From IMG/VR virus record IMGVR_UViG_3300019762_000009, positions 1 to 56,506 of that record: a stretch of 56,506 nucleotides of DNA; one strand, 5' to 3'. Origin of the DNA: a virus (Duplodnaviria; Caudoviricetes). The notes below the pieces were generated by a model, which saw nothing but the letters and a program-made list of their open reading frames with translations, did no database searches and was not told where the DNA came from. Positions 8,169 to 56,506 of this stretch are shown one piece after another; position 1 is the stretch's first letter; every line of letters begins with the position of its first letter. Position numbers and translations under genes: made by a program.

Positions 8169-9497
8169 ATGGCTACATTGAATACTAACAACAAACTGAG
8201 AATGAATCGGGCAGAACTCCTTAAAACTCTTCGTGACAACGACGAGTGGGAGACTTACGAACATGAAGGCAACGTGCTTGCCATTCCAAAATCTGAACTC
8301 ATTACGCCACGTCTTGTAATTGTACGAGTACGTGGACGACATGGTAACAACTGGCGTATGAAGGATGCCGTCATGGACGGTGGTGCTTTTGAGTACGCAG
8401 AAAAGGTATCTTACCTTGGTGACGGGGCAATGGATACCACAGGGGTTGTGGGGTCAGATATGGCAGAAGCCTTGATGGACATGGAAGCTCCGCCTCCCAT
8501 CTTGTTCGCTGTTGGTACAAAGAAGGAAGAGGATTTGATGCTGTCTAACCTGCTTGGGTGGGATAGATTGGCTGAAGTCTTGGACTTCTGTATCGAAATG
8601 GTAGAACTTGGATTCAATACACCGGACACTCGCATGGCTGTTTATCAGGAAGATGCCGAAATGTCCGCTACTCAGTACGGCAAACTTTGTGGTGCTGATC
8701 CAATCCGAATCGGCAATGAAACTATCTTTAGTCCTCTGGCACAGGGCTATCGTATTACTCACACAGCACTCCCTCTCGGTATCTTCCGTGATGGGCAGTG
8801 GGTTTACTACTCAGAGGAACGGGCATTGGAATGCTTCGATCTTCTCATGTATTACCTTAGCATTGAGGCAGAGTATGGTCCGGTAAATGAACCGTTCCAC
8901 TTCTTTCCCAAAGGCGGGCCGAACACACGAGCAGGGAGTCACATCCAGCTTGTTAAACTCCCTGATAACACAGGCATGGTCCCGTGCGCCAACTGCGGAT
9001 GTCTTGTGGGGGGTGAAGGCTACCTTGTAAATAATGGGAACTCGATTGTGTGTGGATCGTGTGCGGTATACAAAGCAAATGACCCAAAGGTCATCTTCGA
9101 AAACAGGATGCCTGTAGACCCCCATTCTGTGGGAATGGAGACGCCTCTGTGCCCTACTTGTAAGAGCAGAAAGGACGTAGTTCTCTACGAAACGGGTATG
9201 GCTGAGGTCTTCCACTGCAACCATTGTGAGAATGACTTCATCCACCAAGGGTCCGAAGAGTTTTGGATTCCAAGGAGAGGGGTCATTGGCAAGCGCATGT
9301 CTAGCACGATGCTTGCCTCTAAGGAACGGTACTGCCATGAATGCGGACAGGATTTGTTACCTTGGGACGTGACGTATTCTACATATCTCACGAAAGACCC
9401 AATGGAAAGTCCGACGGTCCTTTGTCCTACATGTTATCACTTGAATGAGTTGGACTATGATCCAATGCGAACATTGGTTCATGGTCTTGATACATAA
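8169..9497 (+). CDS. Hypothetical protein with three C-terminal Zn-ribbon-like motif pairs
   Basis: CANC/CGSC, CPTC/CNHC and CHEC/CPTC in a ~442-aa ORF. Confidence 0.85.
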   Translation: MATLNTNNKLRMNRAELLKTLRDNDEWETYEHEGNVLAIPKSELITPRLVIVRVRGRHGNNWRMKDAVMDGGAFEYAEKVSYLGDGAMDTTGVVGSDMAEALMDMEAPPPILFAVGTKKEEDLMLSNLLGWDRLAEVLDFCIEMVELGFNTPDTRMAVYQEDAEMSATQYGKLCGADPIRIGNETIFSPLAQGYRITHTALPLGIFRDGQWVYYSEERALECFDLLMYYLSIEAEYGPVNEPFHFFPKGGPNTRAGSHIQLVKLPDNTGMVPCANCGCLVGGEGYLVNNGNSIVCGSCAVYKANDPKVIFENRMPVDPHSVGMETPLCPTCKSRKDVVLYETGMAEVFHCNHCENDFIHQGSEEFWIPRRGVIGKRMSSTMLASKERYCHECGQDLLPWDVTYSTYLTKDPMESPTVLCPTCYHLNELDYDPMRTLVHGLDT

Positions 9498-9648
9498 AAG
9501 TATAGTAACTTAAACTTGAAAGGTTATAGGTAGAAGCCTATGAAGAAAATCCACAGACCTAAGACAAAAGGCTATAGACGTATGCAGAAAAGTCGTGCTT
9601 CTAAGAAGGAAGGCGGTCCGTAATGCATGAAGTTTCTGCAAAAAGTTC

Positions 9649-9676
9649 TTGACAATTGCGGAAACTATGTTATAAT
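9649..9676 (+). promoter_or_regulatory. Consensus sigma70 promoter with extended -10, upstream of the replication module
   Basis: TTGACA-16 bp-TATAAT with TGn. Confidence 0.8.
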
Positions 9677-9817
9677 GTACTTATGTACAGGGTGTCAAGG
9701 ATACTGATTATGGTTATTTAGTAATTGATAATTAGTATTTAAATTAAATAGTATTATGTATACAAGTACTCATTCTGACTGAGTTATCATACATGTACTT
9801 TATGTACTGGAGGTCGT

Positions 9818-10102
9818 ATGACCAAGAAGGAATTAGAACTTGAACTTAAAAAGTCTCAAGCTCAGGTGCGACACCTCCTTCGCACAATAAACAGACATTG
9901 CTACGCCTGTTCAGGCAATGTTAAACGTGAGGTAGAAAGATGCCCTCTGCACTTAGAGCAAAAGAATGGCTCATTAGTACAAGGCTGTTGGTTGTATCCT
10001 TACAGGATGGGGATGTGGCCCACAACAGTGAAGGCTACCGTGAGCGGGAGTGGTGTGCCAACATACACGCCCCCTAAACGTAAACGGAAAACTTCTCGCT
10101 GA
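9818..10102 (+). CDS. Small basic Cys-containing (putative Zn-binding) protein
   Basis: GGAGG RBS; CYAC...C...C. Confidence 0.8.
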   Translation: MTKKELELELKKSQAQVRHLLRTINRHCYACSGNVKREVERCPLHLEQKNGSLVQGCWLYPYRMGMWPTTVKATVSGSGVPTYTPPKRKRKTSR

Positions 10103-10152
10103 TTAACTAAGTATTGAATCAACGTATACACGACGGAATAAGGTATCCAGAT

Positions 10153-27208: not shown

Positions 27209-30200
27209 CTACCTCTTAGAAGGAAGAAGACCTACGGTTTCTGCACGGGATGATGCCCTTTGCATTGCAGAAACTCTTCGCTTGTCTTGTCTATCCAACT
27301 TCTTGTAATATTCTTTTACGGAGATGTCACCATCATGCAACTGTTTATTCAGTCGCTTCCTCAGTTTGTAAAGTCGTTTCATTCTTTTGGCTGCTACCTT
27401 AAAGGCTGGAGCTACTGAGAGTTCCTTGGCATACTGCTTACGAACACGAGCGATTTCAGCAGAGTCTTTCTCATCCTTAGCCATCTGTAAGACAGCCTTA
27501 GCATTGTCAACTTTCTGCTGCAACTTCATGTAGTAGCCTACCTGTTCAGACTGCCCTACCTCGCCAACAAGACGAGACAAGATCGGTACTGATCTCCACT
27601 GTACATCTCGACCAAGATACATGTCTCCGGCAAGATCAAATGCCTGAGTACCTACCTTACCAAGACCACCAGTATAACTACCCCACAAGAACTTCACATG
27701 TTCGGGGCTAACATCAACCCAACCGGACTCTGTACGAGAGCCACCTGTGAGTTCATTCATAGCCTGACAAAAAGAGACCAATACTTTCGAAGTGTTCTTC
27801 CAGTAGCGTTCACTATTAGGAAGCTCACCCTTGCGGTATGGGCTAGGTTCAGGTGCAATTTTCATACCAGTGAAACTCTGGTTCCCGTACATGCGGAAGA
27901 TTGGCTGCAAGAGAGACGGTGCAAGAGCTACTGGACCTTCACCTATATTGCCTGTAGGCATGAAGGTGTTGAACACGTTGCTCACCATAGAAGCTCCTGC
28001 TGCTGTCAAGTCGCCCTTTCCTCGCATGGAATCAAAGGCCAGATTACCGACCATGTTGAAGAGGTTGAATCCGTAGGAAGTGGGAAACTTAACATAGCTC
28101 CCATCTAAACCAGTAGGGATAATGTAGTTCTGAGTTCTGACATATTCAGGAATCTTATCAAAGTATTCCACACCGTCATCATCAGTACCCATCAGCATAC
28201 AGGACAAAGAGTTAGTTAAGAGGGTTAAGGCAATGTTAGCTCCGATCAGTTTAGCTGCTGTCTCTTTACTACTCAAAAGAGTCTTCATCATTCTTACGTT
28301 TGACTGTAAGGAAGCATTCATAAACAAGTACAAAGGTCCAAAGATAGGCGATGCTGTACCCTTCTTAGTGAAGTTCACAGTAAGCTCCAAGGCTACCTTC
28401 ATGGACTCAGCACTAGCCAAGTCATGACAAGTCTGAGGATCATGCCCCTCTTTCTGGTACTTGTAATAGAACTGTTCGTATGCTTCTTTGAAAGCAGCAA
28501 GGCGGGTCATGTTCTCCACCGCAGAAGATACATTCTCGATGTAGTTCAACATAGCCTTAGTACGTTTCTTGCCAATAGCGTACCAGTTCTTCGTAGGAGT
28601 CGTATCATCAAGGGCCGCTTTAAGGTCTTGTGCCTGACTCTCGAAGTCGTTGAGACCAAACATGCTGGTGTACGCACCGGAGTCTCTAAAGCGTTCTGCC
28701 CACATATCCCATTCAGTACCTGTAGTTTCACCATTCAAACTTTTCCAGATAGCCTTTCGAGCTTGGTTCAAGTTCTTAGTGATGTTACGTCTAGTACCCT
28801 TACTGAGATCATTGTCTTTGATAACCTGTTCGAGGTTCATCATAGCAGTAGACCAGTCTCTAGGGGCGTTGACTGCAATGAATGGTGCGGACAGAGATGT
28901 CACAAGCTTACCAAGAAGCCGTGTCCACTTACCAATACCTTTCAGTATGGCTGGAGCCTGTGTCATGTTAGCACCTTTAAGAGCTGCTGCAAGAACAGGG
29001 TCTTCACAAAGAACTCTTACATGATTGCCGTCTTTGTCAATAACGGTGATAACACGCTCAGCTTCATCTTTGCCTTGGAATGCTTTGCTATGTCTCTTGA
29101 TCTTTACCTTGCCTGTAGTCTTATCGAAGGTCTTATAGAAACCAATATGTTCTTTGGCCTCAACCTTGAATACGGAATGTCCTGTGTCCACTTCGTTAGC
29201 GAAGTTCAAGATAGATCGTCCCATCTCCGCAGTTTCAATCATACGGATAGAGTCAATAGTCTGGATGATAGACTGTACTGTTGGACTAGATGGAATATCA
29301 CCACCTTGGTCTAAATCAGTACGGCCTGTAGCCAGTTCAGAACCCTTCCAAGAACCAGAGTGGTAGGTCTTGATACTACTGGACTGATAGTTCGGCACAA
29401 CTTCCTTCATGAGAGTCTCCCAAGAGCCTTCCCCTTTCAGAGGTACATACCAATGAGCAGTATCTCTCCAAGATTTCAGGACTTCTTTCGGCAACAGGTT
29501 GTTCTCTTCGAGGACATCAAGTCTAAACTCGTTGATCTGTCGGAGCTTATCTGCTGCTGCAAACATAGCAGGATTATGTGTTGTGTAGTACTCTATGATC
29601 TCATCAGCCTTCGCATCAGACAAACCAGAACCCGCATCGTTCTTAGGATCGCGCTTACGAATAAGGGCGTTACGCTCTTTAGCATGGAGTGCATGAGCCA
29701 GAGTATCCAGTTTCTGGAATGAAGTCTCAGTATCCCAAGTAGGATCAGAAGCATTCTCAAGAATTGCGATGAGTCCGTCCTTACCTTTTACCATAGTCTC
29801 AATGAACTTATGAATACGCTCAGAGGTACGGTTACTGGAACCAAGTTCTTTATCATAGAAGTTAGCACGATTAGGTACTTCCTTACCAGAAGACTTGAAG
29901 CCCTCAATGATAACGAATGCTCTCTGTAAGTTGTCTGTAAGCATCTCAGACATACGATCGAAACGATCATGCCCTTTGATCAGACCCCCATCAGTGAGCT
30001 TAGTACGATATTCAGACCAAGACTTCTTCAAGTCAGATACATAATCAGAACCTTTGAACAGTTTAGTGTAACCGTCCAGTGTATTGGTTGAATCTTTCAG
30101 CACACGGTTCATCTTTCTAAAAGAATTAAGTCTCTCAGTAGAAGACTTATGCATCTGCTCCCTAGCGATATTAAATGTAGCTGCTGTCAGCACATTCTGC

Positions 30201-33200
30201 ACATCACCTGTGGTAAGCTTCTGGAGTTTGAACTTCTTGAGGATGTTCTTGATAAAGTATCTCAACCTACGCAGAACATTCTGATCTGCTTTAGCCAAGG
30301 TCTCACCAATCTTCATCTTACCTGCGATGAAAGCTATATACTCCTCCGCAACGAGGAGCTTTTCTGCTTTCTTGAGGCCAGAGTTCTTACTCAACCATGT
30401 TTTAAAGGACGCAGTATCCTTGAAAGACTTCCATACAATGTCCAAGAACTCATTGAGTTCCTTCGGAGTCATGATAGTACGGAGACCCAAGTGACAAACA
30501 GCTTCGTGAGTCAGAGTCTTCATAGCCTGTCGTCTATCCTTGCAACGATCTGCAAAGATATAGACTCGTCCGGTACTCTCATCGAAAGCACCCCTAGCTC
30601 CAAAGTCCTCTCTATACGCTTCCTCAATCTTCTTAGGCCAAGAGCCTATGTTGTCCTTAATATCAACTACCTTGATACGTTTCTGTACGCCTCTGAGTTG
30701 TTTGATACCGTCCTTGACCCAACGATGTACTCTCTCCTGCTGGTTCTTTGGCTTAGCTGCTTCACGTTCTGCTGCGGCCTTAGCCTTTGCTCGTGCATCA
30801 GCCTCTGCTCTCTTGATCTTGTGGAGATTCTTAGCGATTCTCTCTACATTATCAGAAAGACTCTTCTCCAAAGTCTCAACAACACGACCTTTCAAGTAAT
30901 CCATGCCTACGGAATCTTTAACAGTATCTACTTCTGCAAGGAGTTCGTTGAAAATTTTCATCTGAGCTTTGTGATAGTCTACTAAAGCTTCATGCTTGTT
31001 AACTCTACGAGTCTTTGTCGCAGCATGTTTAGTAGGCTTATTCATTTGCTGTACAGCCTTGCTCAGTTTTTCTTTCATGTCATCATTGAACTCTTTCTTA
31101 GCTCGTTGGAGAGCATTCTTGTAGTCCTGACGTTCTTTCTGGACAACGGGGTCTGTCTCGAAGGTAGGGCCAGTAGGTTCTACTGAAGCGGGTTCTTCAG
31201 GTACCGCAGCATAGTTAAGCTCGTCAGGAAAATTCTCCTGCACGTACTCTTCTCTTCTACGCAGAGCCTCAGACTGACTAGACTTCTCACCCTGTTGGGC
31301 TTCCATCTTAGCATAGTAGTCTTGAACCATGCGGTCTTGCTCTTTCTGATTACGATCTCTGATCAGCATCTCTTCAAAGATGCGGTCAGCGTTGCGTTCT
31401 TCTATTTCCCGCTCCTGTACAAGACGAACATTCTCACGAAGAGCGTCCCTGTCCTCACGAAGCATACTACGGATTTCTTGTTCTTCCTGTTTACCCTCAA
31501 TGTACTCAGGATTCTTTACATTAGGTGCGGTAGGTTCGACCTTCTTCGCATACGTTGTCTCGATGTCCTTGACGATGGCATCCAAAGAATCGTTCTTCAA
31601 CTCTTCCCACATCTGTCGAACACCCCACATACTGATATCATCAGCTTTAGCGAGGTTCTCAGAGGTCTTAGCAAGGTTCTTATTGATCTTTGCAAGACGT
31701 TCACTGAGGTTTCGTTTCATATACTGGAGCTTCTCAATCTGGTTGGGGTCAGTTTCCTTATCCAACTCAGTATTGATCTGCCCTCTCTGCATAGTTGCAG
31801 CAAGGTTAATCTCACTAGCGAACTCCCCCATCTGCTGAGCCAAATTCTTCTTCTCTTCTTTAAGCATAACGCCTTCAAACTCATTCTGGTTTGGGGCGTT
31901 TCTTATTTCAGAGCGAACCTTCTGCAAGAACTCGTCAAGCACAAGTTTGTTCTGCTTACGGGCTTCTCCTCGTGACCTACGGTACTGTGTATTGAGACGA
32001 TCATAAGTAGACTTATACTTACCGTGAACAATCATATCCTCAATAGCCTGATCTTCTGCTTTCTGAATACGCTCTGTGGCTTTCTTGTCTACTTTCTTAC
32101 CATCTTTCTTCAGAACTTCAAAATTTTCCTTCAGCTTAGCTCTCTTCGCAGCAACAGCAAACTCCTCAGTCTGAATCTGATTCATCATCTGCTGATGTTC
32201 TGTGGAGCCTTGAGCCTGTGTCATCTGTGTGCGTTGGTTTCGTAATTCCGCAGCATAGTTGTCAAGCTCATCCATCTCTTGTTGGACCTGCTCAAGAGAA
32301 GCGTACATATCCATGTCGAGCAAGGTCTTCTTTAATTCAGCCTTTTCAAGCTCACTCGCTGGAGTCTTCTCTTCTGCTTTCACATCTTCGATGATCTCTT
32401 GAACATTCGGTGTAGTGTCCTTGATTTCCTGCACCTGTCTGCGAACATCCATGATAGTATTCGGTACACCAAAAACTGGACCCATGATTGCACCACTTAG
32501 ACCAGAAGAGATAAGATTCTCTAAATCCTGCTGCTCTAAAGGTTTCTTCATGGCATACTTTTTATGAAGCATATCAATACCAGACTGAAGAGATTCTTCA
32601 AGCCCTTCTTGACCACTAGCTTTCATCATGTTCTTAGCACCCTGTGTGAGAATGCCCGCCAGATCATTCTTAAAGGCTCTTGCGGTAGCATCAGAAGCAG
32701 CATCAGTTAACCAACGCTTTGCCAGCATAGCCTCTGGACCGAAGCTCTCGATAATAGCCTTACCAAAACCTGCGGTAATAGCACCGGAAGGACTTGCCTC
32801 ATTAAAACCACGAGTCTTAACATCTGTGGCAAAGGTATGCCCTGTGTGCTGAGGAGTTGCTCCTGCTGCCGCACCAAGAGATGGTACAACTTTCTGACCT
32901 GCACGAGTCAGGAAAGCTTTCATAGCCTGATCTTTAGCGATTTCGGGTGCTACACCCTTGGCGATCTGCCTTTCAATATACTTGTCAGTAAAATGTTTAA
33001 CTGCACCTTTACCTACTTTGTAACCAGCCCCTGCTGTAAGCATCGTGAGAGCCATCTCAGGTAACATAGTACCTGCACTATGGGCTGCCCAATCGATGAA
33101 GTCAGAGAAGTCCTGAATATGGAACAGATCAGGAACACCTTGTGCGTTCTCTTGCTGATACTCTTCAATACGACCAAGGAGTGGCATGAACTTTGCGGCA

Positions 33201-33463
33201 GCTTCTTCATTGTCCATAGCTTTTGCAGCCATCAGACCAAGGCCTACACTAAGTTCTCCTATACCTGCAATACCAGACTTCACACCCTCTACAAACCCTG
33301 CTGGTTCTTCCTCCTGCTTCTGTCCAAGGATTCCCATAGAGTTTAGTGTTGGGTACTCAATCGTCTCAGTTGGCGGGGTATAATAAAAATCTTCTTCTAC
33401 TTCTGGTGGAAGTGAGAGTGGAGACTTGACCACCTGCGGTGCATTTATAAGTCCTCTTTCCAT
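27209..33463 (-). CDS. Large internal virion/ejection protein of polyvalent type (zincin-like HExxxH domain; LPD38-like C-terminus)
   Basis: 2084 aa; GAFD...RVYIFAD...TLTHEAVCHLG...AEEY; C-terminal VNFTKKG, LYLFMNASLQ, KFPTSYG. Confidence 0.75.
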   Translation of the reverse strand: MERGLINAPQVVKSPLSLPPEVEEDFYYTPPTETIEYPTLNSMGILGQKQEEEPAGFVEGVKSGIAGIGELSVGLGLMAAKAMDNEEAAAKFMPLLGRIEEYQQENAQGVPDLFHIQDFSDFIDWAAHSAGTMLPEMALTMLTAGAGYKVGKGAVKHFTDKYIERQIAKGVAPEIAKDQAMKAFLTRAGQKVVPSLGAAAGATPQHTGHTFATDVKTRGFNEASPSGAITAGFGKAIIESFGPEAMLAKRWLTDAASDATARAFKNDLAGILTQGAKNMMKASGQEGLEESLQSGIDMLHKKYAMKKPLEQQDLENLISSGLSGAIMGPVFGVPNTIMDVRRQVQEIKDTTPNVQEIIEDVKAEEKTPASELEKAELKKTLLDMDMYASLEQVQQEMDELDNYAAELRNQRTQMTQAQGSTEHQQMMNQIQTEEFAVAAKRAKLKENFEVLKKDGKKVDKKATERIQKAEDQAIEDMIVHGKYKSTYDRLNTQYRRSRGEARKQNKLVLDEFLQKVRSEIRNAPNQNEFEGVMLKEEKKNLAQQMGEFASEINLAATMQRGQINTELDKETDPNQIEKLQYMKRNLSERLAKINKNLAKTSENLAKADDISMWGVRQMWEELKNDSLDAIVKDIETTYAKKVEPTAPNVKNPEYIEGKQEEQEIRSMLREDRDALRENVRLVQEREIEERNADRIFEEMLIRDRNQKEQDRMVQDYYAKMEAQQGEKSSQSEALRRREEYVQENFPDELNYAAVPEEPASVEPTGPTFETDPVVQKERQDYKNALQRAKKEFNDDMKEKLSKAVQQMNKPTKHAATKTRRVNKHEALVDYHKAQMKIFNELLAEVDTVKDSVGMDYLKGRVVETLEKSLSDNVERIAKNLHKIKRAEADARAKAKAAAEREAAKPKNQQERVHRWVKDGIKQLRGVQKRIKVVDIKDNIGSWPKKIEEAYREDFGARGAFDESTGRVYIFADRCKDRRQAMKTLTHEAVCHLGLRTIMTPKELNEFLDIVWKSFKDTASFKTWLSKNSGLKKAEKLLVAEEYIAFIAGKMKIGETLAKADQNVLRRLRYFIKNILKKFKLQKLTTGDVQNVLTAATFNIAREQMHKSSTERLNSFRKMNRVLKDSTNTLDGYTKLFKGSDYVSDLKKSWSEYRTKLTDGGLIKGHDRFDRMSEMLTDNLQRAFVIIEGFKSSGKEVPNRANFYDKELGSSNRTSERIHKFIETMVKGKDGLIAILENASDPTWDTETSFQKLDTLAHALHAKERNALIRKRDPKNDAGSGLSDAKADEIIEYYTTHNPAMFAAADKLRQINEFRLDVLEENNLLPKEVLKSWRDTAHWYVPLKGEGSWETLMKEVVPNYQSSSIKTYHSGSWKGSELATGRTDLDQGGDIPSSPTVQSIIQTIDSIRMIETAEMGRSILNFANEVDTGHSVFKVEAKEHIGFYKTFDKTTGKVKIKRHSKAFQGKDEAERVITVIDKDGNHVRVLCEDPVLAAALKGANMTQAPAILKGIGKWTRLLGKLVTSLSAPFIAVNAPRDWSTAMMNLEQVIKDNDLSKGTRRNITKNLNQARKAIWKSLNGETTGTEWDMWAERFRDSGAYTSMFGLNDFESQAQDLKAALDDTTPTKNWYAIGKKRTKAMLNYIENVSSAVENMTRLAAFKEAYEQFYYKYQKEGHDPQTCHDLASAESMKVALELTVNFTKKGTASPIFGPLYLFMNASLQSNVRMMKTLLSSKETAAKLIGANIALTLLTNSLSCMLMGTDDDGVEYFDKIPEYVRTQNYIIPTGLDGSYVKFPTSYGFNLFNMVGNLAFDSMRGKGDLTAAGASMVSNVFNTFMPTGNIGEGPVALAPSLLQPIFRMYGNQSFTGMKIAPEPSPYRKGELPNSERYWKNTSKVLVSFCQAMNELTGGSRTESGWVDVSPEHVKFLWGSYTGGLGKVGTQAFDLAGDMYLGRDVQWRSVPILSRLVGEVGQSEQVGYYMKLQQKVDNAKAVLQMAKDEKDSAEIARVRKQYAKELSVAPAFKVAAKRMKRLYKLRKRLNKQLHDGDISVKEYYKKLDRQDKRRVSAMQRASSRAETVGLLPSKR

Positions 33464-46183: not shown

Positions 46184-48224
46184 TCTGTCCTGCCTGTTGC
46201 TGTGCCCGATACATTTCCTGCATAGAAGAAATCATCTCTTTCGGAGAGATTCCGTATTCTCTAGCAGTTTCAGTCATACGGGACATGAAATCACGTTCGG
46301 ACTGTTGCTGAGCCATTGCCTGCTGTTGAGCCATAGCGATCTCTTCTGGAGAGTTCAGCAAGTTACGGTCATCAAGATCAAGAGTCTCAGCAAGCTGTCG
46401 GATAACATTGTCTCGCTTCACGACCTGACCATCAGCAGGATTAGCAGTAAGATTGAGAAACTGCATAAGACTGTTGGCGTAAACTTCTCTAGCGATTAGA
46501 GAAGATGTACCCTTAGCCACAACAGCATAGTCACCCTTGATTGCGGTGTCAGAGTTGAACTGCATGTTCCAATGATACATAGCTTCAATAAAAGGTTCGA
46601 TGATACCTGTGTCAAACCAACGGACCTGATCCTTGATTGTGATGTTAGCAGAACCCATCATCATAGACATGCCAGAAGATGTTCTCTGAGACTGTTCTCC
46701 CCAAGCATTCTTAGGAATGGTAGTGACTGTATCGCAGTAGTCTTCGAAGACTTTGCACATAGCCATCAGTTCCTGAGAATGGGAATCAATATTGTAAACA
46801 CGAACTGCTGGGGACTGAGCATCATTGCCTCGCCCTGTTCGTGTCCAAATCTTGAAGGGGTAGATGTCGCTGATGTCTTCACTCTCATCGACCAATTGCA
46901 TATTAACTTCGATCTGCGGTCCTGCACAAATGGCTGCGTTATCAAGAAGCGCACGGAAAGAACTATTAGTTAATTCCTGAACATCTCTCATGATAGACGG
47001 AATACCCTCACCGAAGATACTTGTCTCGTCTTTGTCGTAGTAGTACAGATAGAAGGGCCACTTAACGCCTTCAAGAGGTGCAAGAGATGCTTTGATAACA
47101 CGGCTTCCACAAACCCAAATGCAAGCGGCAAGTTCTACAGAACCTCTGAGACGATCCGGTACTGTTACACCAGCCTGTTCAAGAGTATCAGCAGAGAAGT
47201 AACCCCAGTATTCGAGGACTTCGTACTTATTCTTTTCGGCATCTGTAGTCAAGCCTGTGCCGTCTACATTGGTAAGCTTACCGATAGAGAAGAGATCAGA
47301 TTCAAAGTTCTGGAGTTTGTAGTTACCTGTTGGGTAAGCAACAACCAATTCTCTAAGAGCATTGCTGTCAAAGTCTGGTCTATTCTGAAGAGCGATAAAG
47401 TCAGACTTAGGCATTTTATGTCGCTGCATTGCAAAACGTGCATCGTTCAGATCAGAGACAGACAGATCAGGATAGAAATCCCAAAGCTGCACAAAGTCTA
47501 CATGTGGAACGAAACGATCTTTCTGCACGAGACGCCATTCATATGTGCCATCTTCTTTAGAATGCTTTGCGTACTGTTTCTTCTTAGAAAGGGAAACCAT
47601 TGGCCCTTTCAGAATGCCAGTACCATAGATGTTCCCACTATGGATGACAGAGGTGAGTTTATCGTTGAACTCTACTTCGGACAGTTGGTCTTCAATTGTC
47701 TTCTGCATAGCCTCAGCACGATCATTAGCAGCCTGTTTCAGAAGACCCTTGTACTCTTCGGGAGTGATCATCTGCTGTGTCTGCTGCATGTGCTGCATAA
47801 CCATCTGTTCAAGAAGCTTCTCATCCATCTGAGGTCGTTCAGTAGGAGTAACCTGAAATATTGCGTTGCCTTTACTTGAAAAGATAAAGTCCTTAAGGCG
47901 GGAATCGACAACCTTTACTTTGTTTCGTGTCAGACGAATAAATGCTTTGCTTCGGTGATCTCCGATATGCTGCAAAACTGTGTCACTATACTGTCCACGA
48001 TACTGCCTCAAGTCTCTAAGCCAACGATCTTCTAAAGATTTACGTTGATCAGCTACTTCGGAGAAACGAGAGTTAATGATCTGAGCTAGGGCATCTACTT
48101 GCACATTTGGTGCGGAAGGATTCAGTCCTTCGACTTTCCCTTTGCTGCTTTCATCATCAACTGTAAGCTTCTCGATAGCATCTTTCTCAAATTTATTAAG
48201 CTTTGTCTCAAGCTCTTTCTTCAT
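46170..48224 (-). CDS. Portal protein
   Basis: 684 aa directly after terminase; YGTGILKG, FYPD, FGEGIP, LLDNAA; Q-rich C-terminus. Confidence 0.88.
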   Translation of the reverse strand: MKKELETKLNKFEKDAIEKLTVDDESSKGKVEGLNPSAPNVQVDALAQIINSRFSEVADQRKSLEDRWLRDLRQYRGQYSDTVLQHIGDHRSKAFIRLTRNKVKVVDSRLKDFIFSSKGNAIFQVTPTERPQMDEKLLEQMVMQHMQQTQQMITPEEYKGLLKQAANDRAEAMQKTIEDQLSEVEFNDKLTSVIHSGNIYGTGILKGPMVSLSKKKQYAKHSKEDGTYEWRLVQKDRFVPHVDFVQLWDFYPDLSVSDLNDARFAMQRHKMPKSDFIALQNRPDFDSNALRELVVAYPTGNYKLQNFESDLFSIGKLTNVDGTGLTTDAEKNKYEVLEYWGYFSADTLEQAGVTVPDRLRGSVELAACIWVCGSRVIKASLAPLEGVKWPFYLYYYDKDETSIFGEGIPSIMRDVQELTNSSFRALLDNAAICAGPQIEVNMQLVDESEDISDIYPFKIWTRTGRGNDAQSPAVRVYNIDSHSQELMAMCKVFEDYCDTVTTIPKNAWGEQSQRTSSGMSMMMGSANITIKDQVRWFDTGIIEPFIEAMYHWNMQFNSDTAIKGDYAVVAKGTSSLIAREVYANSLMQFLNLTANPADGQVVKRDNVIRQLAETLDLDDRNLLNSPEEIAMAQQQAMAQQQSERDFMSRMTETAREYGISPKEMISSMQEMYRAQQQAGQNAQP

Positions 48225-49687
48225 TAGTAGCCTCCGATGTGACTAGCTGCTCGGTACTTAGGACGAAGGTTATACCCTCGACTAAACCTGCTAATTTTCT
48301 TTTTATTGAGTGGTGTATAAAACTCCAAGGCAGCGTACTGACAAGCATCATGTACATGTGAGAACTCATTCTTGACTGGTTTGTCCTTGAATTGTTTGCT
48401 CATGGACCCACCACCAACTTTGATCTCAGCATATTTGTAACCAGAAATAAAACCTTTACGAAGCTGTGGGCATTTCTTACCGTTCATGATAAAACCACAG
48501 GTCTTGCGTTTCAATGGTTCAATCACTGCTTGTCTTCGAGCGATTGGGTTATTAGTCTTTGCAGGAATCCAGTGTACTCCGGCAGCGTCTAACACATCAG
48601 TACCTGCCCGTGAATCATTCATAGACCTTTGACAAGTCGCAGGGTCAACGACAACTGTATAGTTGTTGATCCACGGACGGTACTTACTATATAACTTAGG
48701 AAGGAGAAGGTCATTAACGAAGGTCTGTAAATCACAGTCTTCCGTAACGATTTCTTCAAAGACATAAAAAGTACCATCGGGTGCTTGTTGGGTGAACACG
48801 CAGGCAGGGGTTAAACCCTGATCCATGCCGATAATCAATTCCACGCCTTGTAGTGGTGTGAGGTTATCCTCTACACTATGATTAGTATCATCGTACATAG
48901 TATAAACAACACGACCATTTGTGTACTCACCGTAGTTGTTCATCAAGTTAATCTGAATTGCTTCAGGCTCCATAATGTTCAACATGTCTGTGTAGTACGT
49001 AGCAGAGAGGTTATCCAAGTTCTCTGCGTCTGGATTGACCACAAATCTGTTACCTACTTTCAGAACGGCAGGTGGCTGTCTGTAGAAGGAACAACCATCT
49101 GGCTTCCTAACCTCGGTTACATGATATAACCAATGGTCAGTAGATACTGCGTTGTAGTCAAAGAGAAGAAAAGGATCAACTGGTCCTATTTCCTGCGTAT
49201 CTTTCTTAGAAGGAAATCTATTGATACGAGTAGGTAGAACCTTTAACAGGTATGCAGGAAGTTCAGACGCCTCCGCACAATGAATACCTGTGAACTCACG
49301 AGAACGAAAGTGTTCAATAGCTCGTTCATCTTCAGCAGCGATAAACCAAAGTTCCATGTGCATAGACGTACCATCAGGCAAGTCCATTTCGAGAACACCT
49401 TTATAAGGTTTCGACATAGTAAGTTTGAGTTTATCTTTAAACCAATCTTTCCAAGAAGCCAGCATAGAACCTTCCAAGGCTCCATATGTTGCACGAACGA
49501 TCGCATAACGACTTCTTCGTACACCATCTTGCTGAGGAATCTGTTTAGCTGCATTCATCCACAAATGCCAGATACAACCAGAGGTCTTACCTGAACCAAC
49601 CGGACCCATAACAAAGATATATTTGTTTTTGTCTCGGTGAATTTTTGCGAATGTGTTAGACGCTTTATAATTAAGCTTGAACTCCAT
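48224..49687 (-). CDS. terL: Terminase large subunit
   Basis: Walker A GPVGSGKT; RNase H-like GMDQG, VVDPA, SHVHDACQY. Confidence 0.92.
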   Translation of the reverse strand: MEFKLNYKASNTFAKIHRDKNKYIFVMGPVGSGKTSGCIWHLWMNAAKQIPQQDGVRRSRYAIVRATYGALEGSMLASWKDWFKDKLKLTMSKPYKGVLEMDLPDGTSMHMELWFIAAEDERAIEHFRSREFTGIHCAEASELPAYLLKVLPTRINRFPSKKDTQEIGPVDPFLLFDYNAVSTDHWLYHVTEVRKPDGCSFYRQPPAVLKVGNRFVVNPDAENLDNLSATYYTDMLNIMEPEAIQINLMNNYGEYTNGRVVYTMYDDTNHSVEDNLTPLQGVELIIGMDQGLTPACVFTQQAPDGTFYVFEEIVTEDCDLQTFVNDLLLPKLYSKYRPWINNYTVVVDPATCQRSMNDSRAGTDVLDAAGVHWIPAKTNNPIARRQAVIEPLKRKTCGFIMNGKKCPQLRKGFISGYKYAEIKVGGGSMSKQFKDKPVKNEFSHVHDACQYAALEFYTPLNKKKISRFSRGYNLRPKYRAASHIGGY

Positions 49688-52994: not shown

Positions 52995-53033
52995 GGAGAA
53001 CCTCCAAGGTTGTACTATTCATATCTTACCTAT

Positions 53034-53101
53034 ATTATAGCATAAAATTATCAGATTGTCAATACTTTTTACTTGACATCTTATAAAAAATATGATATAA
53101 T
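53034..53101. promoter_or_regulatory. Back-to-back divergent consensus sigma70 promoters
   Basis: Minus: TTGACA(53062-57)-17-TATAAT(53039-34). Plus: TTGACA(53073-78)-17-TATAAT(53096-101). Both have TGn. Confidence 0.85.
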
Positions 53102-53236
53102 ATACACAAGTACTCAGGAGGACTATATGTACTATAAGAACTTTAATACATAGTACTTATAGTTCCTATGTATATTTCCGTCAGGAAATATATACATAGA
53201 TTACTATATATAACTATATATTACTTAGGGACACCT

Positions 53237-53749
53237 ATGAGTAAAACGAACATTGCAAAAACCTTAGAAGTAAATCCTCACGATTTCAATGAAGAGATGT
53301 GTAGTAGTAAACCTACTAATACATTTAGAATAAATGAATTTGCATCTTTGATAGAACCCACTACATTACTTACTCACGATGAGTGCAAAAAGCTAATTAA
53401 GTTTATCTTCTTTGTAATCGCTCAGAAAATGCGGGAAGGTTACAGAGTCGATATTCCGTATTTCGGTACATTCTATCCTAGATATCAGAAACCTAGAAAA
53501 GCTTTTAATGTACATACCCAAGAGAAGAGAGAACTCCCTGCAAGGATCATTCCCTGCTTCTCTCGTAAACGTATGCTTACAAGAATTATGGATGAAGAGC
53601 AGTATCATAAATATAAGAAAGCAGAACCTACAAAGATAAAAGGTCTCGATGCTTTAGCCGAAGAGTACGCCCATGTCTGCATCGGTGATGATTATACTAA
53701 GTACCTCTATCCAGAAGAATTTGATGACATAAAAACTACAGTGTGGTAG
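53237..53749 (+). CDS. HU/IHF family DNA-binding protein with terminal extensions
   Basis: GYRVDIPYFGTFYPRYQKPRKAFNVHTQEKRELPARIIPCF matches the HU/IHF arm pattern; start uncertain (53168 possible). Confidence 0.8.
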   Translation: MSKTNIAKTLEVNPHDFNEEMCSSKPTNTFRINEFASLIEPTTLLTHDECKKLIKFIFFVIAQKMREGYRVDIPYFGTFYPRYQKPRKAFNVHTQEKRELPARIIPCFSRKRMLTRIMDEEQYHKYKKAEPTKIKGLDALAEEYAHVCIGDDYTKYLYPEEFDDIKTTVW

Positions 53750-53757
53750 TCCTTCAC

Positions 53758-53797
53758 AGGAAGTTATTAGAGAAATCTAGTAGCTTCCTTTTCTTTT
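53758..53797 (+). terminator. Rho-independent terminator after the HU/IHF gene
   Basis: AGGAAGTTATTAGA-GAAA-TCTAGTAGCTTCCT followed by TTTCTTTT. Confidence 0.8.
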
Positions 53798-54111
53798 GTC
53801 TAACGGGCGGTTTGTATAGAAGTACTATATGGTCCTATCCCTGACTCTATGGGAAACCCATTACTCCTCTTACTCCCTGCATTGTAAGAATCTTCTGAAG
53901 CTTCTATTCCTACCCATGACTCTACCCAAACTAGTAAAAAATATTTTAGGAAATTTCTATATACATGGACGGAATATAATGATTTCAACCCACCTCTGTG
54001 CCCCTCCCCCACCTCCTCGGACCCCCTCGTACAAAATATCCCTCTGTAAACTCTCTTATGGCAAGGGGCGGTACCCTCCCAGACCTTACCTGAACAACCA
54101 GTGCTCCTATC

Positions 54112-54250
54112 ATTGATAATCATTTTCAATTGAGAACAATTCTCACTCTCATTTGATTATGATTCTCAGGCTCAGTTGACAACGATTCTCATTCTCTGTT
54201 GATTCTGATTCTCACTCTCGGTATCAGTTGAACACGATTGTCAATATCAT
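54112..54250. repeat. Tandem array of six Fur-box-like 7-1-7 palindromes (~23-bp period)
   Basis: TGA-N4-N-ATT(C/T/G)TCA at 54114, 54131, 54154, 54177, 54200 and 54229. Confidence 0.8.
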
Positions 54251-54478
54251 TTCGGATAGTCCTACCTTCCCCTTATATAATGTAATAGTTCTTTTTCGAT
54301 TCTAAACCCTTCTTTAACCTTCCGTAGTATGTTCCTATCAAGTACCTCTTTAGAATGCCTTACAGGGCTATTTCTGGACGTTTTACGGTGCGTGGTTCAA
54401 AATAAAGTTTCTTGTACTTTCCTTCTTTATCGGTACAACTCTTTATACTTCCTTTACTGGCGTGCCTTCCTAACCTCT

Positions 54479-54497
54479 ATTGATAAGGGTTCTCAAT
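54479..54497. promoter_or_regulatory. Isolated Fur-box-like site
   Basis: ATTGATAAGGGTTCTCAAT. Confidence 0.6.
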
Positions 54498-54771
54498 GAG
54501 TAGCCTCAGTATGGTACAAGATTTTGTACTGATATGGTCAGTTCTGGCAAGGTTGTACTTTCCTTTTATTATCCGGTCGCAAGGTTATACCTTTTTATTC
54601 TCTTGTCCTGCCTACGTTCTCACACTTTCTTTATTATCCACTTTCAAAGTTTGGCATGGTTGGCACGGTCGATGCTATAACCTTCCCAGATTCAGCAAGG
54701 GCGGTTTCTGGGGCAATTCCCCGCCGCTCTTCAATACGAATTTAGGACCACCAAAAACTTTCAAAAAGTTG

Positions 54772-55009
54772 TTGACAGTCCGAACGAGATAGACTAGCTT
54801 CTATCTCAAGGCGAACGGCTTAACTTGCTTGTTTGTTTATGCGTTATCAAGCGTCAATAAAATAGCTCCCTGACAATGAGTTTTAGGATAACGATATAAG
54901 CTCTTGACAATCCCGTTTAAGTTAACTAGCCTAAAGTTCAAGGCATGAGGGAGCCTTTAAAATTCTCACAAACTTTCGCTTGACAAGGCCTTTGAAGCTT
55001 TGATAGAGT
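54772..55009 (+). promoter_or_regulatory. Cluster of three tandem early sigma70 promoters
   Basis: TTGACA at 54772, 54904 and 54980, with -10 TAGCTT and TAGCCT (17-bp spacers) and TAGAGT (18 bp, TGn). Confidence 0.7.
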
Positions 55010-55176
55010 GAACACAAGCCTAGCATATGGGGTGTACGTATGCCCGACATAGCTCCGATTAGTGGCAATCCCGCTATAGCTATAACGGTGATCTTTTACA
55101 ACTAAATAGTGAAAAATGTGTATCCTACTCAAATACGGGGTTAAGTACAACATACTAACCTATCAGGAGTAACATT

Positions 55177-56148
55177 ATGAGCTTAACTTTCGATTACGGC
55201 AGTTTGGCAAGTTCGGGTACAAACAAGTCCGGTAAACTGATTCGTTGCAAAGACTGCGAAAAAGCCTACCGAAAAGCTTTACACGAACTGGATCAAAACT
55301 TTGCCAAGTATTGCAAAGGCTTGCCGCAACACACACAGATTGACGAACATAAGCCAATGGCTATTTCAGGTCATATCCGTAAGCGGCAAGAAAAGGTCAA
55401 TCATACGCCTTTTGAAACACGTTTCTTGTTCTCAAAAAGCAAGTTTAATAAACGGCCAGTTTCAAAGGACGAAATGAAAATTCGGGCTAATGAGTTCTTG
55501 CAAAGTATCTCATGCCCACGGTGCAGGCACATCTTGCCGGACCGTAGGAACAAAAAGGCGGTGGAGGTTAACCACTACTGCGAAGACTGTTCCAAAATTC
55601 GAGAAGGCATTGAAAGACGCTTTACAAGAGCGTTAAAAAATGCTAGTAATATGTCGAATAAAGAACTGAAACGACTCCGTATGACATACCAGTATGAACT
55701 CGATACTGCACACTGTGAAAATTGTGCAACAAGTCTCAGATTGGTAGCTGTTCCCAAAAGTCCTTTTAAAAGCGTACCTGACCGTATTAAAGTCCGGAAG
55801 CGCAAGAAAAATGGCAAGCTTACAAAGTCCCGATATACTGAAGAATCAGCAAGGGATTACAAAAACGCCTTGACAAAAGCGAAACGTAAGCCTAAAGTGG
55901 AACGTGAAAGGGCCGTTGTTACCAGAACACGGGTAAAAACAAGCAGGGTTTCTGAGGCTAGAAAGGCTGAAGCCAATGCCCGTGAAGTTGCAAAGAACTA
56001 TTTTGCTGACCTCTTAGTTTTTAAGTACTGTACTCCGTACGGAAGTGGTATTGTAAAGGCTTTGAATGAAGTCGAGGCAAAACGTAAGATTTGCCACAAT
56101 CAAGGCTTGACAACCTTTCCACAAGACAGTATATTGGCTCCTGCATAG
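55177..56148 (+). CDS. Highly basic Cys-rich first early protein
   Basis: AGGAG RBS; CKDC, CPRC, CEDC, CENC; very K/R-rich. Confidence 0.85.
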   Translation: MSLTFDYGSLASSGTNKSGKLIRCKDCEKAYRKALHELDQNFAKYCKGLPQHTQIDEHKPMAISGHIRKRQEKVNHTPFETRFLFSKSKFNKRPVSKDEMKIRANEFLQSISCPRCRHILPDRRNKKAVEVNHYCEDCSKIREGIERRFTRALKNASNMSNKELKRLRMTYQYELDTAHCENCATSLRLVAVPKSPFKSVPDRIKVRKRKKNGKLTKSRYTEESARDYKNALTKAKRKPKVERERAVVTRTRVKTSRVSEARKAEANAREVAKNYFADLLVFKYCTPYGSGIVKALNEVEAKRKICHNQGLTTFPQDSILAPA

Positions 56149-56185
56149 CGGGTGCTACTAGCCCCGAAATTTGAGTAGAAAAGTC

Positions 56186-56214
56186 TTGACAAACTTGGAT
56201 ACACATGATTTACT
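56186..56214 (+). promoter_or_regulatory. sigma70 promoter upstream of the large structured RNA
   Basis: TTGACA-17 bp-TTTACT with TGn. Confidence 0.6.
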
Positions 56215-56219
56215 AGAAA

Positions 56220-56506
56220 CATGTAGTGCTTGATAACATGATGCACTGAGTACGCTATCTCGTATCGCTTTAGGCGGGTAGTGTAACAACGCCTCAGCAT
56301 GACACGGGCAAGAATTACATGAGTTGTTTGACATAAGCATTAGTCCCTACGCATGGGGACGGTTTGCAAAGCTTAGTGTGGCAGTCTGTGGTAGACCCAA
56401 AGAGAGAGGCCGTGATGGGACTGGTGGAAGTTCCTGATAGCCTTGGCGCACAACGATAGCGATGCACAAAATGCCGGACAGTACACCTACGAGGGTACTA
56501 CCGTAA
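56220..56506 (+). ncRNA. 5' part of the candidate large structured ncRNA (continues at position 1)
   Basis: Local hairpins plus nested helices pairing with 153-239. Confidence 0.7.

Follow-up and report, generated by a model that had tools for sequence, protein, structure and literature searches.

The question raised by this locus is why a phage should carry, in a gene-free stretch of its DNA, a dense row of palindromes that look like operators of Fur, the iron-dependent repressor of bacteria, and which protein would bind them. The row lies in the virus record IMGVR_UViG_3300019762_000009, and the window analysed here is the whole of this record, 56,506 bp of a podovirus contig which is classed as linear in IMG/VR and was estimated by CheckV to be 85% complete. 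A first-pass annotation, made from the sequence alone, had described the row as a phased array of Fur-box-like sites with no iron gene adjacent to it, the latter being confirmed in the window, and had suggested that it might be a Fur sponge or an iron-sensing element. Here we describe arrays of this kind as a widespread class in phages, argue that host Fur is probably their ligand, and weigh what the array of the window might do.

The six 7-1-7 palindromes of that annotation were confirmed exactly by reading the sequence, both in their coordinates (Table 1) and in their spacings of 17/23/23/23/29 bp, counted from site start to site start. The copies have diverged at the variable positions and have kept TGA...ATT.TCA, as had also been noted. 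The consensus of the array itself is TGAGAAT-N-ATTCTCA, in which the right half ATTCTCA is near-invariant and the left half is loose, and a repeat finder recognized three 46-nt copies in a 23-bp register across it. The seventh site claimed at some distance proved to be real; the degenerate copy suspected at 54091, in contrast, has nine mismatches and is no site. The extra half-sites reported 6 bp on from the palindromes are present as hexamers, the first of which ends in TCA in three of the six units (CTCTCA, GGCTCA, ATATCA), as does the second hexamer after site 5 (GTATCA); as full second sites at the +6-bp offset, however, they score poorly, departing from the degenerate form at 4-5 positions.

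Mismatches of the sites were scored against TGATAATNATTATCA. With at most three mismatches to it, 10 sites are found in the 56.5-kb contig, five of them in 54114-54214 and a sixth at 54481. The degenerate pattern TGAKAATNATTMTCA, with at most two mismatches allowed, gave 8 matches in the window against 0.98 ± 0.93 expected (maximum 3) from 100 dinucleotide shuffles, six of these eight falling within 54114-54495 (about 380 bp), and the same pattern read backwards gave 0 matches. The comparison with a shuffled background, which the first-pass annotation had proposed to make with a position weight matrix, was thus positive with a degenerate pattern in its place; all scans used consensus and degenerate patterns, controlled by shuffles and backward patterns. 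The clustering of Fur-like sites in the window is far above chance.

In order to characterize the motif beyond the window a seed, ATTCTCA-N8-TGA-N5-ATTCTCA, was used, which demands two perfect ATTCTCA half-sites, and the counts depend on that. Scanning one genome per species yielded at least 120 bacterial seed loci. In 19 hand-chosen named genomes among the 120 loci listed, the two boxes usually straddle a TTGACA...TAnnnT promoter. Iron transporters make up four of ten flanking open reading frames (ORFs) which were picked by hand from 8 of the 120 listed loci: Salinicola has a TonB-dependent receptor, Sutcliffiella has FecCD on one side of the seed site and a periplasmic binding protein on the other, and a Bacillus has FecCD. 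Further flanking ORFs encode a YncE-like propeller (Serratia) and a TrxB-like reductase (Thalassobacillus), which we take to resemble members of the Fur regulon, and four of the ten have no iron link.

The neighbourhood of the palindromes points in the same direction. The 84 non-seed sites taken from the viral arrays read A(A/T)TGA(G/T)AAT-G-ATTCTCATT..CA; the flanking A and TT, on which no selection had been made, are those of the 19-bp Fur box, and the CA at +20/21 marks the 6-bp register, the +6 site being clear in other viral arrays. E. coli Fur sites were reported to cluster at 6-bp offsets (PMC2189734), and the Anabaena FurA consensus is given as AAATAAATTCTCAATAAAT (PMC4005646), with the same ATTCTCA core and loose left side as the units of the window. 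Cyanobacterial Fur boxes were described as palindromes around a single central base, where Fur is able to act as a transcriptional roadblock (PMC8634477). The Fur-box-like reading of the repeats is therefore upheld by the seed shared with iron-transport promoters, by the fit of the 84 flanks to the 19-bp consensus and by the core shared with Anabaena FurA: judged by its letters, the motif of the window is Fur-type, and host Fur is probably the protein that binds the arrays, being the likeliest candidate. The likeness to the E. coli Fur operator extends to the 15-bp inverted repeat TGA....N....TCA and the ATT core. A Fur box of 19-21 bp accommodates two dimers by means of a second, overlapping site at an offset of 6 bp, and the extra half-sites of the window, in 6-bp register but weak, may correspond to this. 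The preferred half-site, on the other hand, is TGAGAAT in the array of the window and TGATAAT in the Fur consensus, and bacterial Fur operators consist of one to three overlapping boxes on a promoter, whereas the window holds six to seven separate units over 140 bp, with no regulated gene or clear promoter.

Among the bacterial loci a conserved promoter with two ATTCTCA boxes around TTGACA...TATAGT was seen in Chamaesiphon contigs (L098, L108, L111, L158) and in Elainella (L113), with a conserved ORF-less stretch downstream of it. This stretch may encode a Fur-controlled small RNA such as IsaR1; no Rfam family matched it at gathering score.

Arrays of such sites proved to be frequent in viral contigs. 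The seed with its ATTCTCA pair was found at 58 IMG/VR loci, against 2 and 3 with two composition-matched 7-mer shuffles (about 20-fold), and the canonical ATTATCA seed at 67. Sites at most 60 bp apart, each with at most three mismatches to the degenerate form, were counted as a chain, for which, as for crude ORF calls, scripts of our own were used. Chains of at least three sites were present at 39 of the 58 viral loci of the ATTCTCA seed and at 14 of 61 new viral loci of the canonical seed, compared with 7 of 120 bacterial genome loci among the matches listed and 0 of 5 shuffled-control loci. The viral arrays comprise 3-12 sites in long non-coding gaps; by the same chain rule the window, whose 1.4-kb stretch without genes has a chain of five to six sites, belongs to this class. 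The location is non-coding for 53 of 54 arrays (that of the window counted in), with a median gap of 919 bp; 15 of the 54 stand between diverging genes and 16 abut the end of the locus. A position at most 500 bp from the contig end was observed for 14 of 58, where 4.8 were expected. At p <= 0.1 a GC-rich tract lies at most 120 bp from the array in 16 of the 54, and the C-rich tract of the window has p = 0.03.

Of the 167 ORFs nearest to the arrays, 150 were considered; the PHROG families that occur most often in them are those of endolysin (10), of HNH endonucleases and, in several versions, of the large terminase, and no DNA-binding PHROG family was common to the neighbours of the arrays within these 150. 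Since a shared phage DNA-binding neighbour is lacking there and the motif, flanks included, is shared across unrelated phages, a conserved host protein is indicated as the ligand. A scan with variable gap, which covered roughly a tenth of the collection judging by the reappearance of earlier loci, gave at least 113 loci, with arrays in 42 of 113 among the matches listed. Spacings of 6k-1 bp from site to site (17, 23, 29, 35...) accounted for 45 of 123 in these matches, against 18.9 expected, and the 17/23/23/23/29 of the window fits this preference. A strict 6-bp quantisation of the spacing was rejected: in the same matches seed-pair gaps of 2, 14, 20 and 26 were not enriched (18 against 20.8 expected). 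Two further loci were noted in these searches. In a Bacteroidales genome bin (L079, 2047-2203) nine Fur-like sites follow one another every 17 bp; no denser array was seen in any bacterial genome bin, and this locus may be phage or prophage. A 20,518-bp contig with a six-site array occurs both as an IMG/VR viral contig (L037) and within a Rhodobiaceae genome bin (L139).

Cultured phages carry such arrays as well. One metagenomic array (L034) gave BLAST matches in 136 cultured-phage records, mostly coliphages of the phi92 and phAPEC8 types and some T5-like phages. In phi92 (NC_023693) 18 sites have at most two mismatches, whereas the control pattern gave 2. An array of five near-perfect units occupies 136993-137100 in an unannotated 800-bp non-coding gap, adjoining three direct repeats of about 60 bp, and perfect boxes at 79-93 and 274-288 fall within the annotated 343-bp direct terminal repeat and hence at both DNA ends; G-rich tracts stand alongside the phi92 boxes (loci L179 and L250-L252, with further positions at 147409 and 147467). 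Phi92 and its relatives (Stephanstirmvirinae) are enterobacterial myoviruses, unlike the podovirus of the window, and their sites are much nearer to the consensus; arrays of this type are unannotated, save as 'repeat_region' in two of the listed records. A phi92-type array match as in coliphages of that size was also seen in the INPHARED records MG065645 and MG065689 (146 kb, Campylobacter phages A145 and A110a), whose host label may be questionable.

In T5 (NC_005859, AY692264) all six sites with at most one mismatch fall in the terminal repeats, and a perfect box stands 233 bp from the start of each repeat (233-247), inside the dmp gene. The T5 array proper, at 9554-9719 (L256, L342), consists of AAATGAGAATCATT-type units with spacings of 35/23/17/29/35, followed by a GC-rich palindrome. 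The record AY692264 annotates 9140-10144, which encloses the array, as the injection stop signal, and the coordinates agree between both T5 records. The shear point of the first-step-transfer DNA was placed at about 9618, within direct repeats, in a preprint that attributes the stop to DnaA boxes and in the main text of which the word Fur is absent (10.1101/866236); the T5 array surrounds this point. The T5 region (Repeat Region 3, left terminal repeat) and that of the window are both non-coding and share the unit type and the spacing classes. The T5 region belongs to the first-entering DNA. A GC-rich palindrome follows the T5 array, and a C-rich tract lies beside that of the window; paired DnaA boxes, large inverted repeats and GTGCAAATCCGACA repeats are present in T5 and missing from the window, and the two-step DNA transfer of T5 is not known for the phage of the window.

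The units in phages of E. coli equal the E. coli Fur consensus. A megablast of 53000-56506 against cultured phages gave no match, and distant BLAST with the array of the window found there only a weak 32-bp match in the T5-like Vibrio phage PG07, through which a genuine Fur-like cluster came to light in that phage. A 1.4-kb non-coding gap of PG07 (NC_048041, 109664-110120, L257) has two Fur-like clusters, and between them stand three DnaA boxes of consensus sequence (TGTGGATAA). It should be emphasized that the first-pass annotation knew of no characterised system like this. Indeed no paper describing Fur-box arrays in lytic phage genomes was found in the open-access and bioRxiv literature, although this does not prove that none exists. 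Arrays of this kind are nevertheless common in viral contigs, and phi92 and T5 have them within the terminal repeat and the injection-stop region, respectively. Phage Fur-box arrays are a widespread class, undescribed as far as found.

The surroundings of the array in the window are listed in Table 1. The array lies 2.3 kb from the end of the contig, and no terminal repeat was found on comparing both contig ends; the terminal location stated by the first-pass annotation holds for the record, but for the record only, the contig being linear and 85% complete and the array 2.3 kb inside it. A rightward arm, which sets out at about 55.2 kb, continues across the start of the record and reaches 27 kb, encodes primase-like, DnaB-like helicase, family A DNA polymerase, T7-type endonuclease I, ligase, lysozyme and ThyX proteins; a leftward arm from 53 kb to 27 kb encodes the large terminase, the portal and a 2084-aa protein, whose ORF (27209-33463, minus strand) is at the inner end of this late-gene arm.

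Table 1. Features of the window at and around the array (positions on the record; mismatches of the sites refer to the Fur 7-1-7 consensus)
Feature	Position	Strand	Remarks
Array of six Fur-box-like units	54112..54250	+	each unit a 15-bp 7-1-7 inverted repeat, then 0-2 extra hexamers and a 2-bp spacer
Site 1, TGATAAT-C-ATTTTCA	54114..54128		1 mismatch
Site 2, TGAGAAC-A-ATTCTCA	54131..54145		3 mismatches; extra hexamer CTCTCA 54146-54151
Site 3, TGATTAT-G-ATTCTCA	54154..54168		2 mismatches; extra hexamer GGCTCA 54169-54174
Site 4, TGACAAC-G-ATTCTCA	54177..54191		3 mismatches; extra hexamer TTCTCT 54192-54197
Site 5, TGATTCT-G-ATTCTCA	54200..54214		3 mismatches; extra hexamers CTCTCG, GTATCA 54215-54226
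Site 6, TGAACAC-G-ATTGTCA	54229..54243		weakest, 4 mismatches; extra hexamer ATATCA 54244-54249
Outlying site 7, TGATAAG-G-GTTCTCA	54481..54495		2-3 mismatches, 3 to TGATAATNATTATCA; 25-nt inverted repeat with array start
Gene-free stretch holding the array	53790..55176		1.4 kb, no convincing gene; pyrimidine-rich on + strand
C-rich tract	53998..54030	+	about 85 bp upstream of array
Back-to-back perfect TTGACA-17-TATAAT promoter-like sites	53034..53101		facing late-gene arm and HU-like gene
HU/IHF-family gene, 193 aa	53168..53749	+	PF00216, 5.5e-12; directly upstream of non-coding stretch
Terminator-like hairpin after HU-like gene	53758..53789	+	325 bp before array
Promoter-like TTGACA repeats, four copies	54772..55009	+	upstream of first rightward ORF; sigma-70 scan passed only by copy at 54980
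First rightward ORF, 323 aa, cysteine-rich, basic, four CxxC pairs	55177-56148		no Pfam/PHROG family

Two ORFs over the left edge of the array (53800-54129 on the minus and 53829-54116 on the plus strand) have implausible products, the first being without a PHROG family, and were taken as non-coding. The product of the 323-aa ORF is possibly a zinc-ribbon nucleic-acid binder. This ORF is flanked on both sides by a promoter-like family, TTGACAA with ACTAG about 16 bp on (54772-55009, 56107-56135 and about 56185); as most of the copies lack a -10 that passes the standard test, a different -10 may be in use by the host or the phage. Small repeats of other kinds stand downstream of the array at 54400-54660, namely GTACTTTCCTT(C/T)TTAT, TTTATTATCC.. 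and GGTACAA.., each twice. No tRNAs were found in the window, Rfam over 53000-56506 gave no family at E <= 1 except one chance-level CRISPR-repeat match, and the six-frame search found no Fur-family protein encoded by the phage.

We favour, though tentatively, the reading that the array of the window is a cis-acting, host-Fur-dependent operator element, a binding and an effect which we infer from the DNA. The six primary sites would serve as operators for the iron-loaded, dimeric repressor Fur of the host, the extra half-sites in 6-bp register would let a second dimer stack, and one more site is available 250 bp on. In an iron-replete cell holo-Fur would coat about 140 bp and form a nucleoprotein block beside the early-promoter region, where the coat could act as a roadblock or as an anchor, and an early step would thereby be tied to Fur and hence to iron status. 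Candidate steps are DNA entry, read-through across the end region, early transcription or the start of replication. Across the class the arrays are often positioned near physical DNA ends or between diverging late and early arms. A more far-reaching proposal, which we regard as quite unlikely, is that several tailed-phage families place Fur-operator arrays in first-entering or end DNA, so that pre-existing holo-Fur would be a checkpoint for entry or early development.

Several observations weigh against a Fur-dependent operator element. Fur operators overlap the -35/-10 of an iron-regulated gene, and the array of the window does not: no promoter clearly overlaps it, the promoter-like matches inside it are two and weak (9/12), the nearest promoter-like repeats are more than 500 bp off (those of TTGACA type start about 520 bp downstream), and neither flank has a convincing gene. 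The sites of the window are of moderate quality, with loose left half-sites and weak +6 sites, and the array could equally be direct repeats for another protein. The 6k-1 spacing is a preference and not a law, the 23-bp class being no commoner than others among the variable-gap matches listed, and assembly breaks at repeats could account for part of the excess at contig ends. The link to the T5 stop signal is one of position alone, suggestive and not causal. The sole clue to the host is the microbial mat metagenome label of the two runs, X1 and X2, that hold this DNA; both consist of contigs only, and the sequence of X2 is identical to the window, hence it offers no variation for conservation tests.

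The relatives of the phage count on the same side. Relatives of its DNA polymerase number in the hundreds and lie on contigs of 57-67 kb; identity reaches 62% in the closest of them. In the five nearest IMG/VR records (G001-G005) the polymerase is 37-44% identical and the large terminase (TerL) 53% (G001, G002) or 44% (G004), and these records have 0-1 scattered Fur-like sites each and no array. G001, which is complete, is organized alike at this place, with back-to-back promoters followed by one rightward gene and about 2.2 kb of non-coding DNA, but this DNA has no array of repeats, Fur-like or other. The equivalent arrays that the first-pass annotation had thought worth seeking at the ends of related phages thus exist near the ends of many other phages and are missing from the nearest relatives. 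The HU-like gene is likewise absent from G001, G002 and G004, the records searched; a word search among 5.8 billion proteins returned no homologue of its product but itself, and neither this protein nor the 323-aa ORF had relatives among the viral contigs searched. Since the nearest relatives are without the array, it is, like the HU-like gene, an accessory of one lineage and not core machinery; the array is dispensable for this phage type, which we count against the operator reading. The HU-like gene has an N-terminal extension and is provided with its own perfect promoter-like site and terminator-like hairpin.

A sponge that acts in trans, as inferred in the first-pass annotation, is rather doubtful: replicating arrays would titrate holo-Fur and derepress the Fur regulon of the host, including iron uptake and the Mn-dependent ribonucleotide reductase. 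Many good sites without a gene to regulate would suit this role, arrays that are accessory and sporadic among relatives behave as an add-on would, and the principle of titration was established by the Fur titration assay. The window's phage encodes a T7-type endonuclease I, however, and T7 endonuclease I takes part in host DNA breakdown; moreover, no iron-dependent enzyme was found among the 40 window ORFs scanned against Pfam. Host iron-uptake genes do rise in iron-replete infection in two systems, a rise which the authors left unexplained (PMC6024767), but the two phages concerned have no array, PAK_P4 having 2 lone sites and NCTC12673 17 scattered sites against 13 for the control; PAK_P3 has no Fur-like sites. 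T5, in turn, is described as degrading host DNA at the pre-early stage and has an array all the same, hence derepression of the host cannot be its use there. Taken together, the idea that the array soaks up Fur and derepresses iron uptake found no support. A role in cis is preferred because the arrays favour DNA ends, terminal repeats and the vicinity of early promoters, none of which a sponge needs, because T5 keeps its array though the host DNA is destroyed early, and because PAK_P4 and NCTC12673 induce host iron genes without one; from the positions of the sites, a gate formed by Fur coating on entry or early events would fit better.

It is also rather improbable, in our judgement, that the array serves as iterons to which a replication initiator, a small terminase, another end-binder or the like, encoded by the phage, would bind, and that its Fur likeness is a coincidence of AT-rich palindromes. 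Origins typically show what is seen here, imperfect repeats phased at 23 bp within the main non-coding region that separates the diverging arms; the conserved right half and loose left half are direct-repeat-like, and other repeat families follow just downstream together with a DnaA-box-like word (8/9) at 54634; words with at most one mismatch to the DnaA box number 14 genome-wide, however, so the last is insignificant. Elsewhere in the class, arrays often stand next to genes for terminase, HNH proteins and endolysin, where cos or pac sites are usually found, but in the window TerL (48224-49687) is 4.4 kb from the array, behind four ORFs and the promoter pair, and the array is not directly beside the terminase genes, unlike a cosB or pac recognition site. 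The HU-like gene is private to this phage, and so is its array, which counts in favour of iterons. HU-family proteins, though, are as a rule not sequence-specific, and by eye no IHF-type consensus words were seen in the array; the HU-like protein was rejected as its specific ligand and is probably not that ligand. No initiator or specific DNA-binding family was found beside the array, where several neighbouring ORFs are without any family, and equivalents of the repeats are missing from the 2.2-kb gap of G001. Above all the motif, including its unselected flanks, recurs with unrelated terminases in the myovirus phi92, the siphovirus T5 and podovirus contigs, and since it recurs across unrelated phage families a phage-specific protein is no explanation of it.

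Another host regulator with a Fur-like operator, for instance one of the Fur paralogues Zur, PerR and Mur or a dimeric protein unrelated to them, appears very unlikely. The host is known by the mat label of the runs only, the 7-1-7 operators of paralogues differ by one or two bases per half-site, and in the sites of the window half-site position 4 and the left halves deviate from the canonical box; against this, the invariant TGA...TCA ends and the ATT core are Fur-type letters, bacterial loci of the same seed sit at iron-transport genes, and the units of E. coli phages equal the consensus of E. coli Fur. That the repeats are a recent tandem duplication without function is hardly credible, for although no close relative allows a conservation test (the HU-like protein matches only itself and X2 is identical), TGA...ATT.TCA is preserved in copies whose variable positions have diverged, there is a seventh site at a distance of 250 bp, and the same architecture is found in unrelated phages.

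The use of host DNA-binding proteins by phages has precedents, as in the IHF sites of lambda cosB. Sites of host regulators in phage control regions, comparable to those of the window, are also reported as CtrA boxes in phages of Alphaproteobacteria (PMC9437464) and as DnaA boxes within a control region of T5 (10.1101/866236). The window differs from the CtrA, IHF and DnaA cases in that its sites, all of a single operator type, are packed densely into an array without a promoter next to it and are those of a regulator that senses iron. The lambda origin and plasmid iterons also consist of phased, dyad-symmetric sites of 15-22 bp in non-coding DNA, bound by the element's own, element-specific initiator; the motif of the window's array, in contrast, is common to unrelated phages, and no initiator gene was found nearby. 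The datA locus, which titrates DnaA, is a precedent for holding many copies of one protein. The T7 arrays SRL and SRR are 7-bp direct repeats next to the terminal repeat. With the window they share short repeats between the end of the genome (in the window, that of the contig) and early host-polymerase promoters in a podovirus with T7-type replication genes, but their repeats are not Fur-like.

If these arrays were sponges instead, they would be a gene-free reprogramming of a host regulon. The class also explains unannotated repeat regions in many coliphages of the therapeutic type, in the phi92 and phAPEC8 groups. For T5, whose DNA transfer halts at 8% for reasons long debated, it offers a concrete and cheap test; Fur boxes close to the E. 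coli consensus surround the shear point within the annotated stop region. If the checkpoint reading were true, Fur would be, besides DnaA, a host factor of the 50-year-old injection-stop signal of T5, and infection by environmental phages such as that of the window would be iron-gated. If Fur binds, phages would read the iron status of the host through the cell's own sensor, by means of a DNA element rather than a gene, which would bear on the iron dependence of infection in mats, lakes, oceans and the gut.

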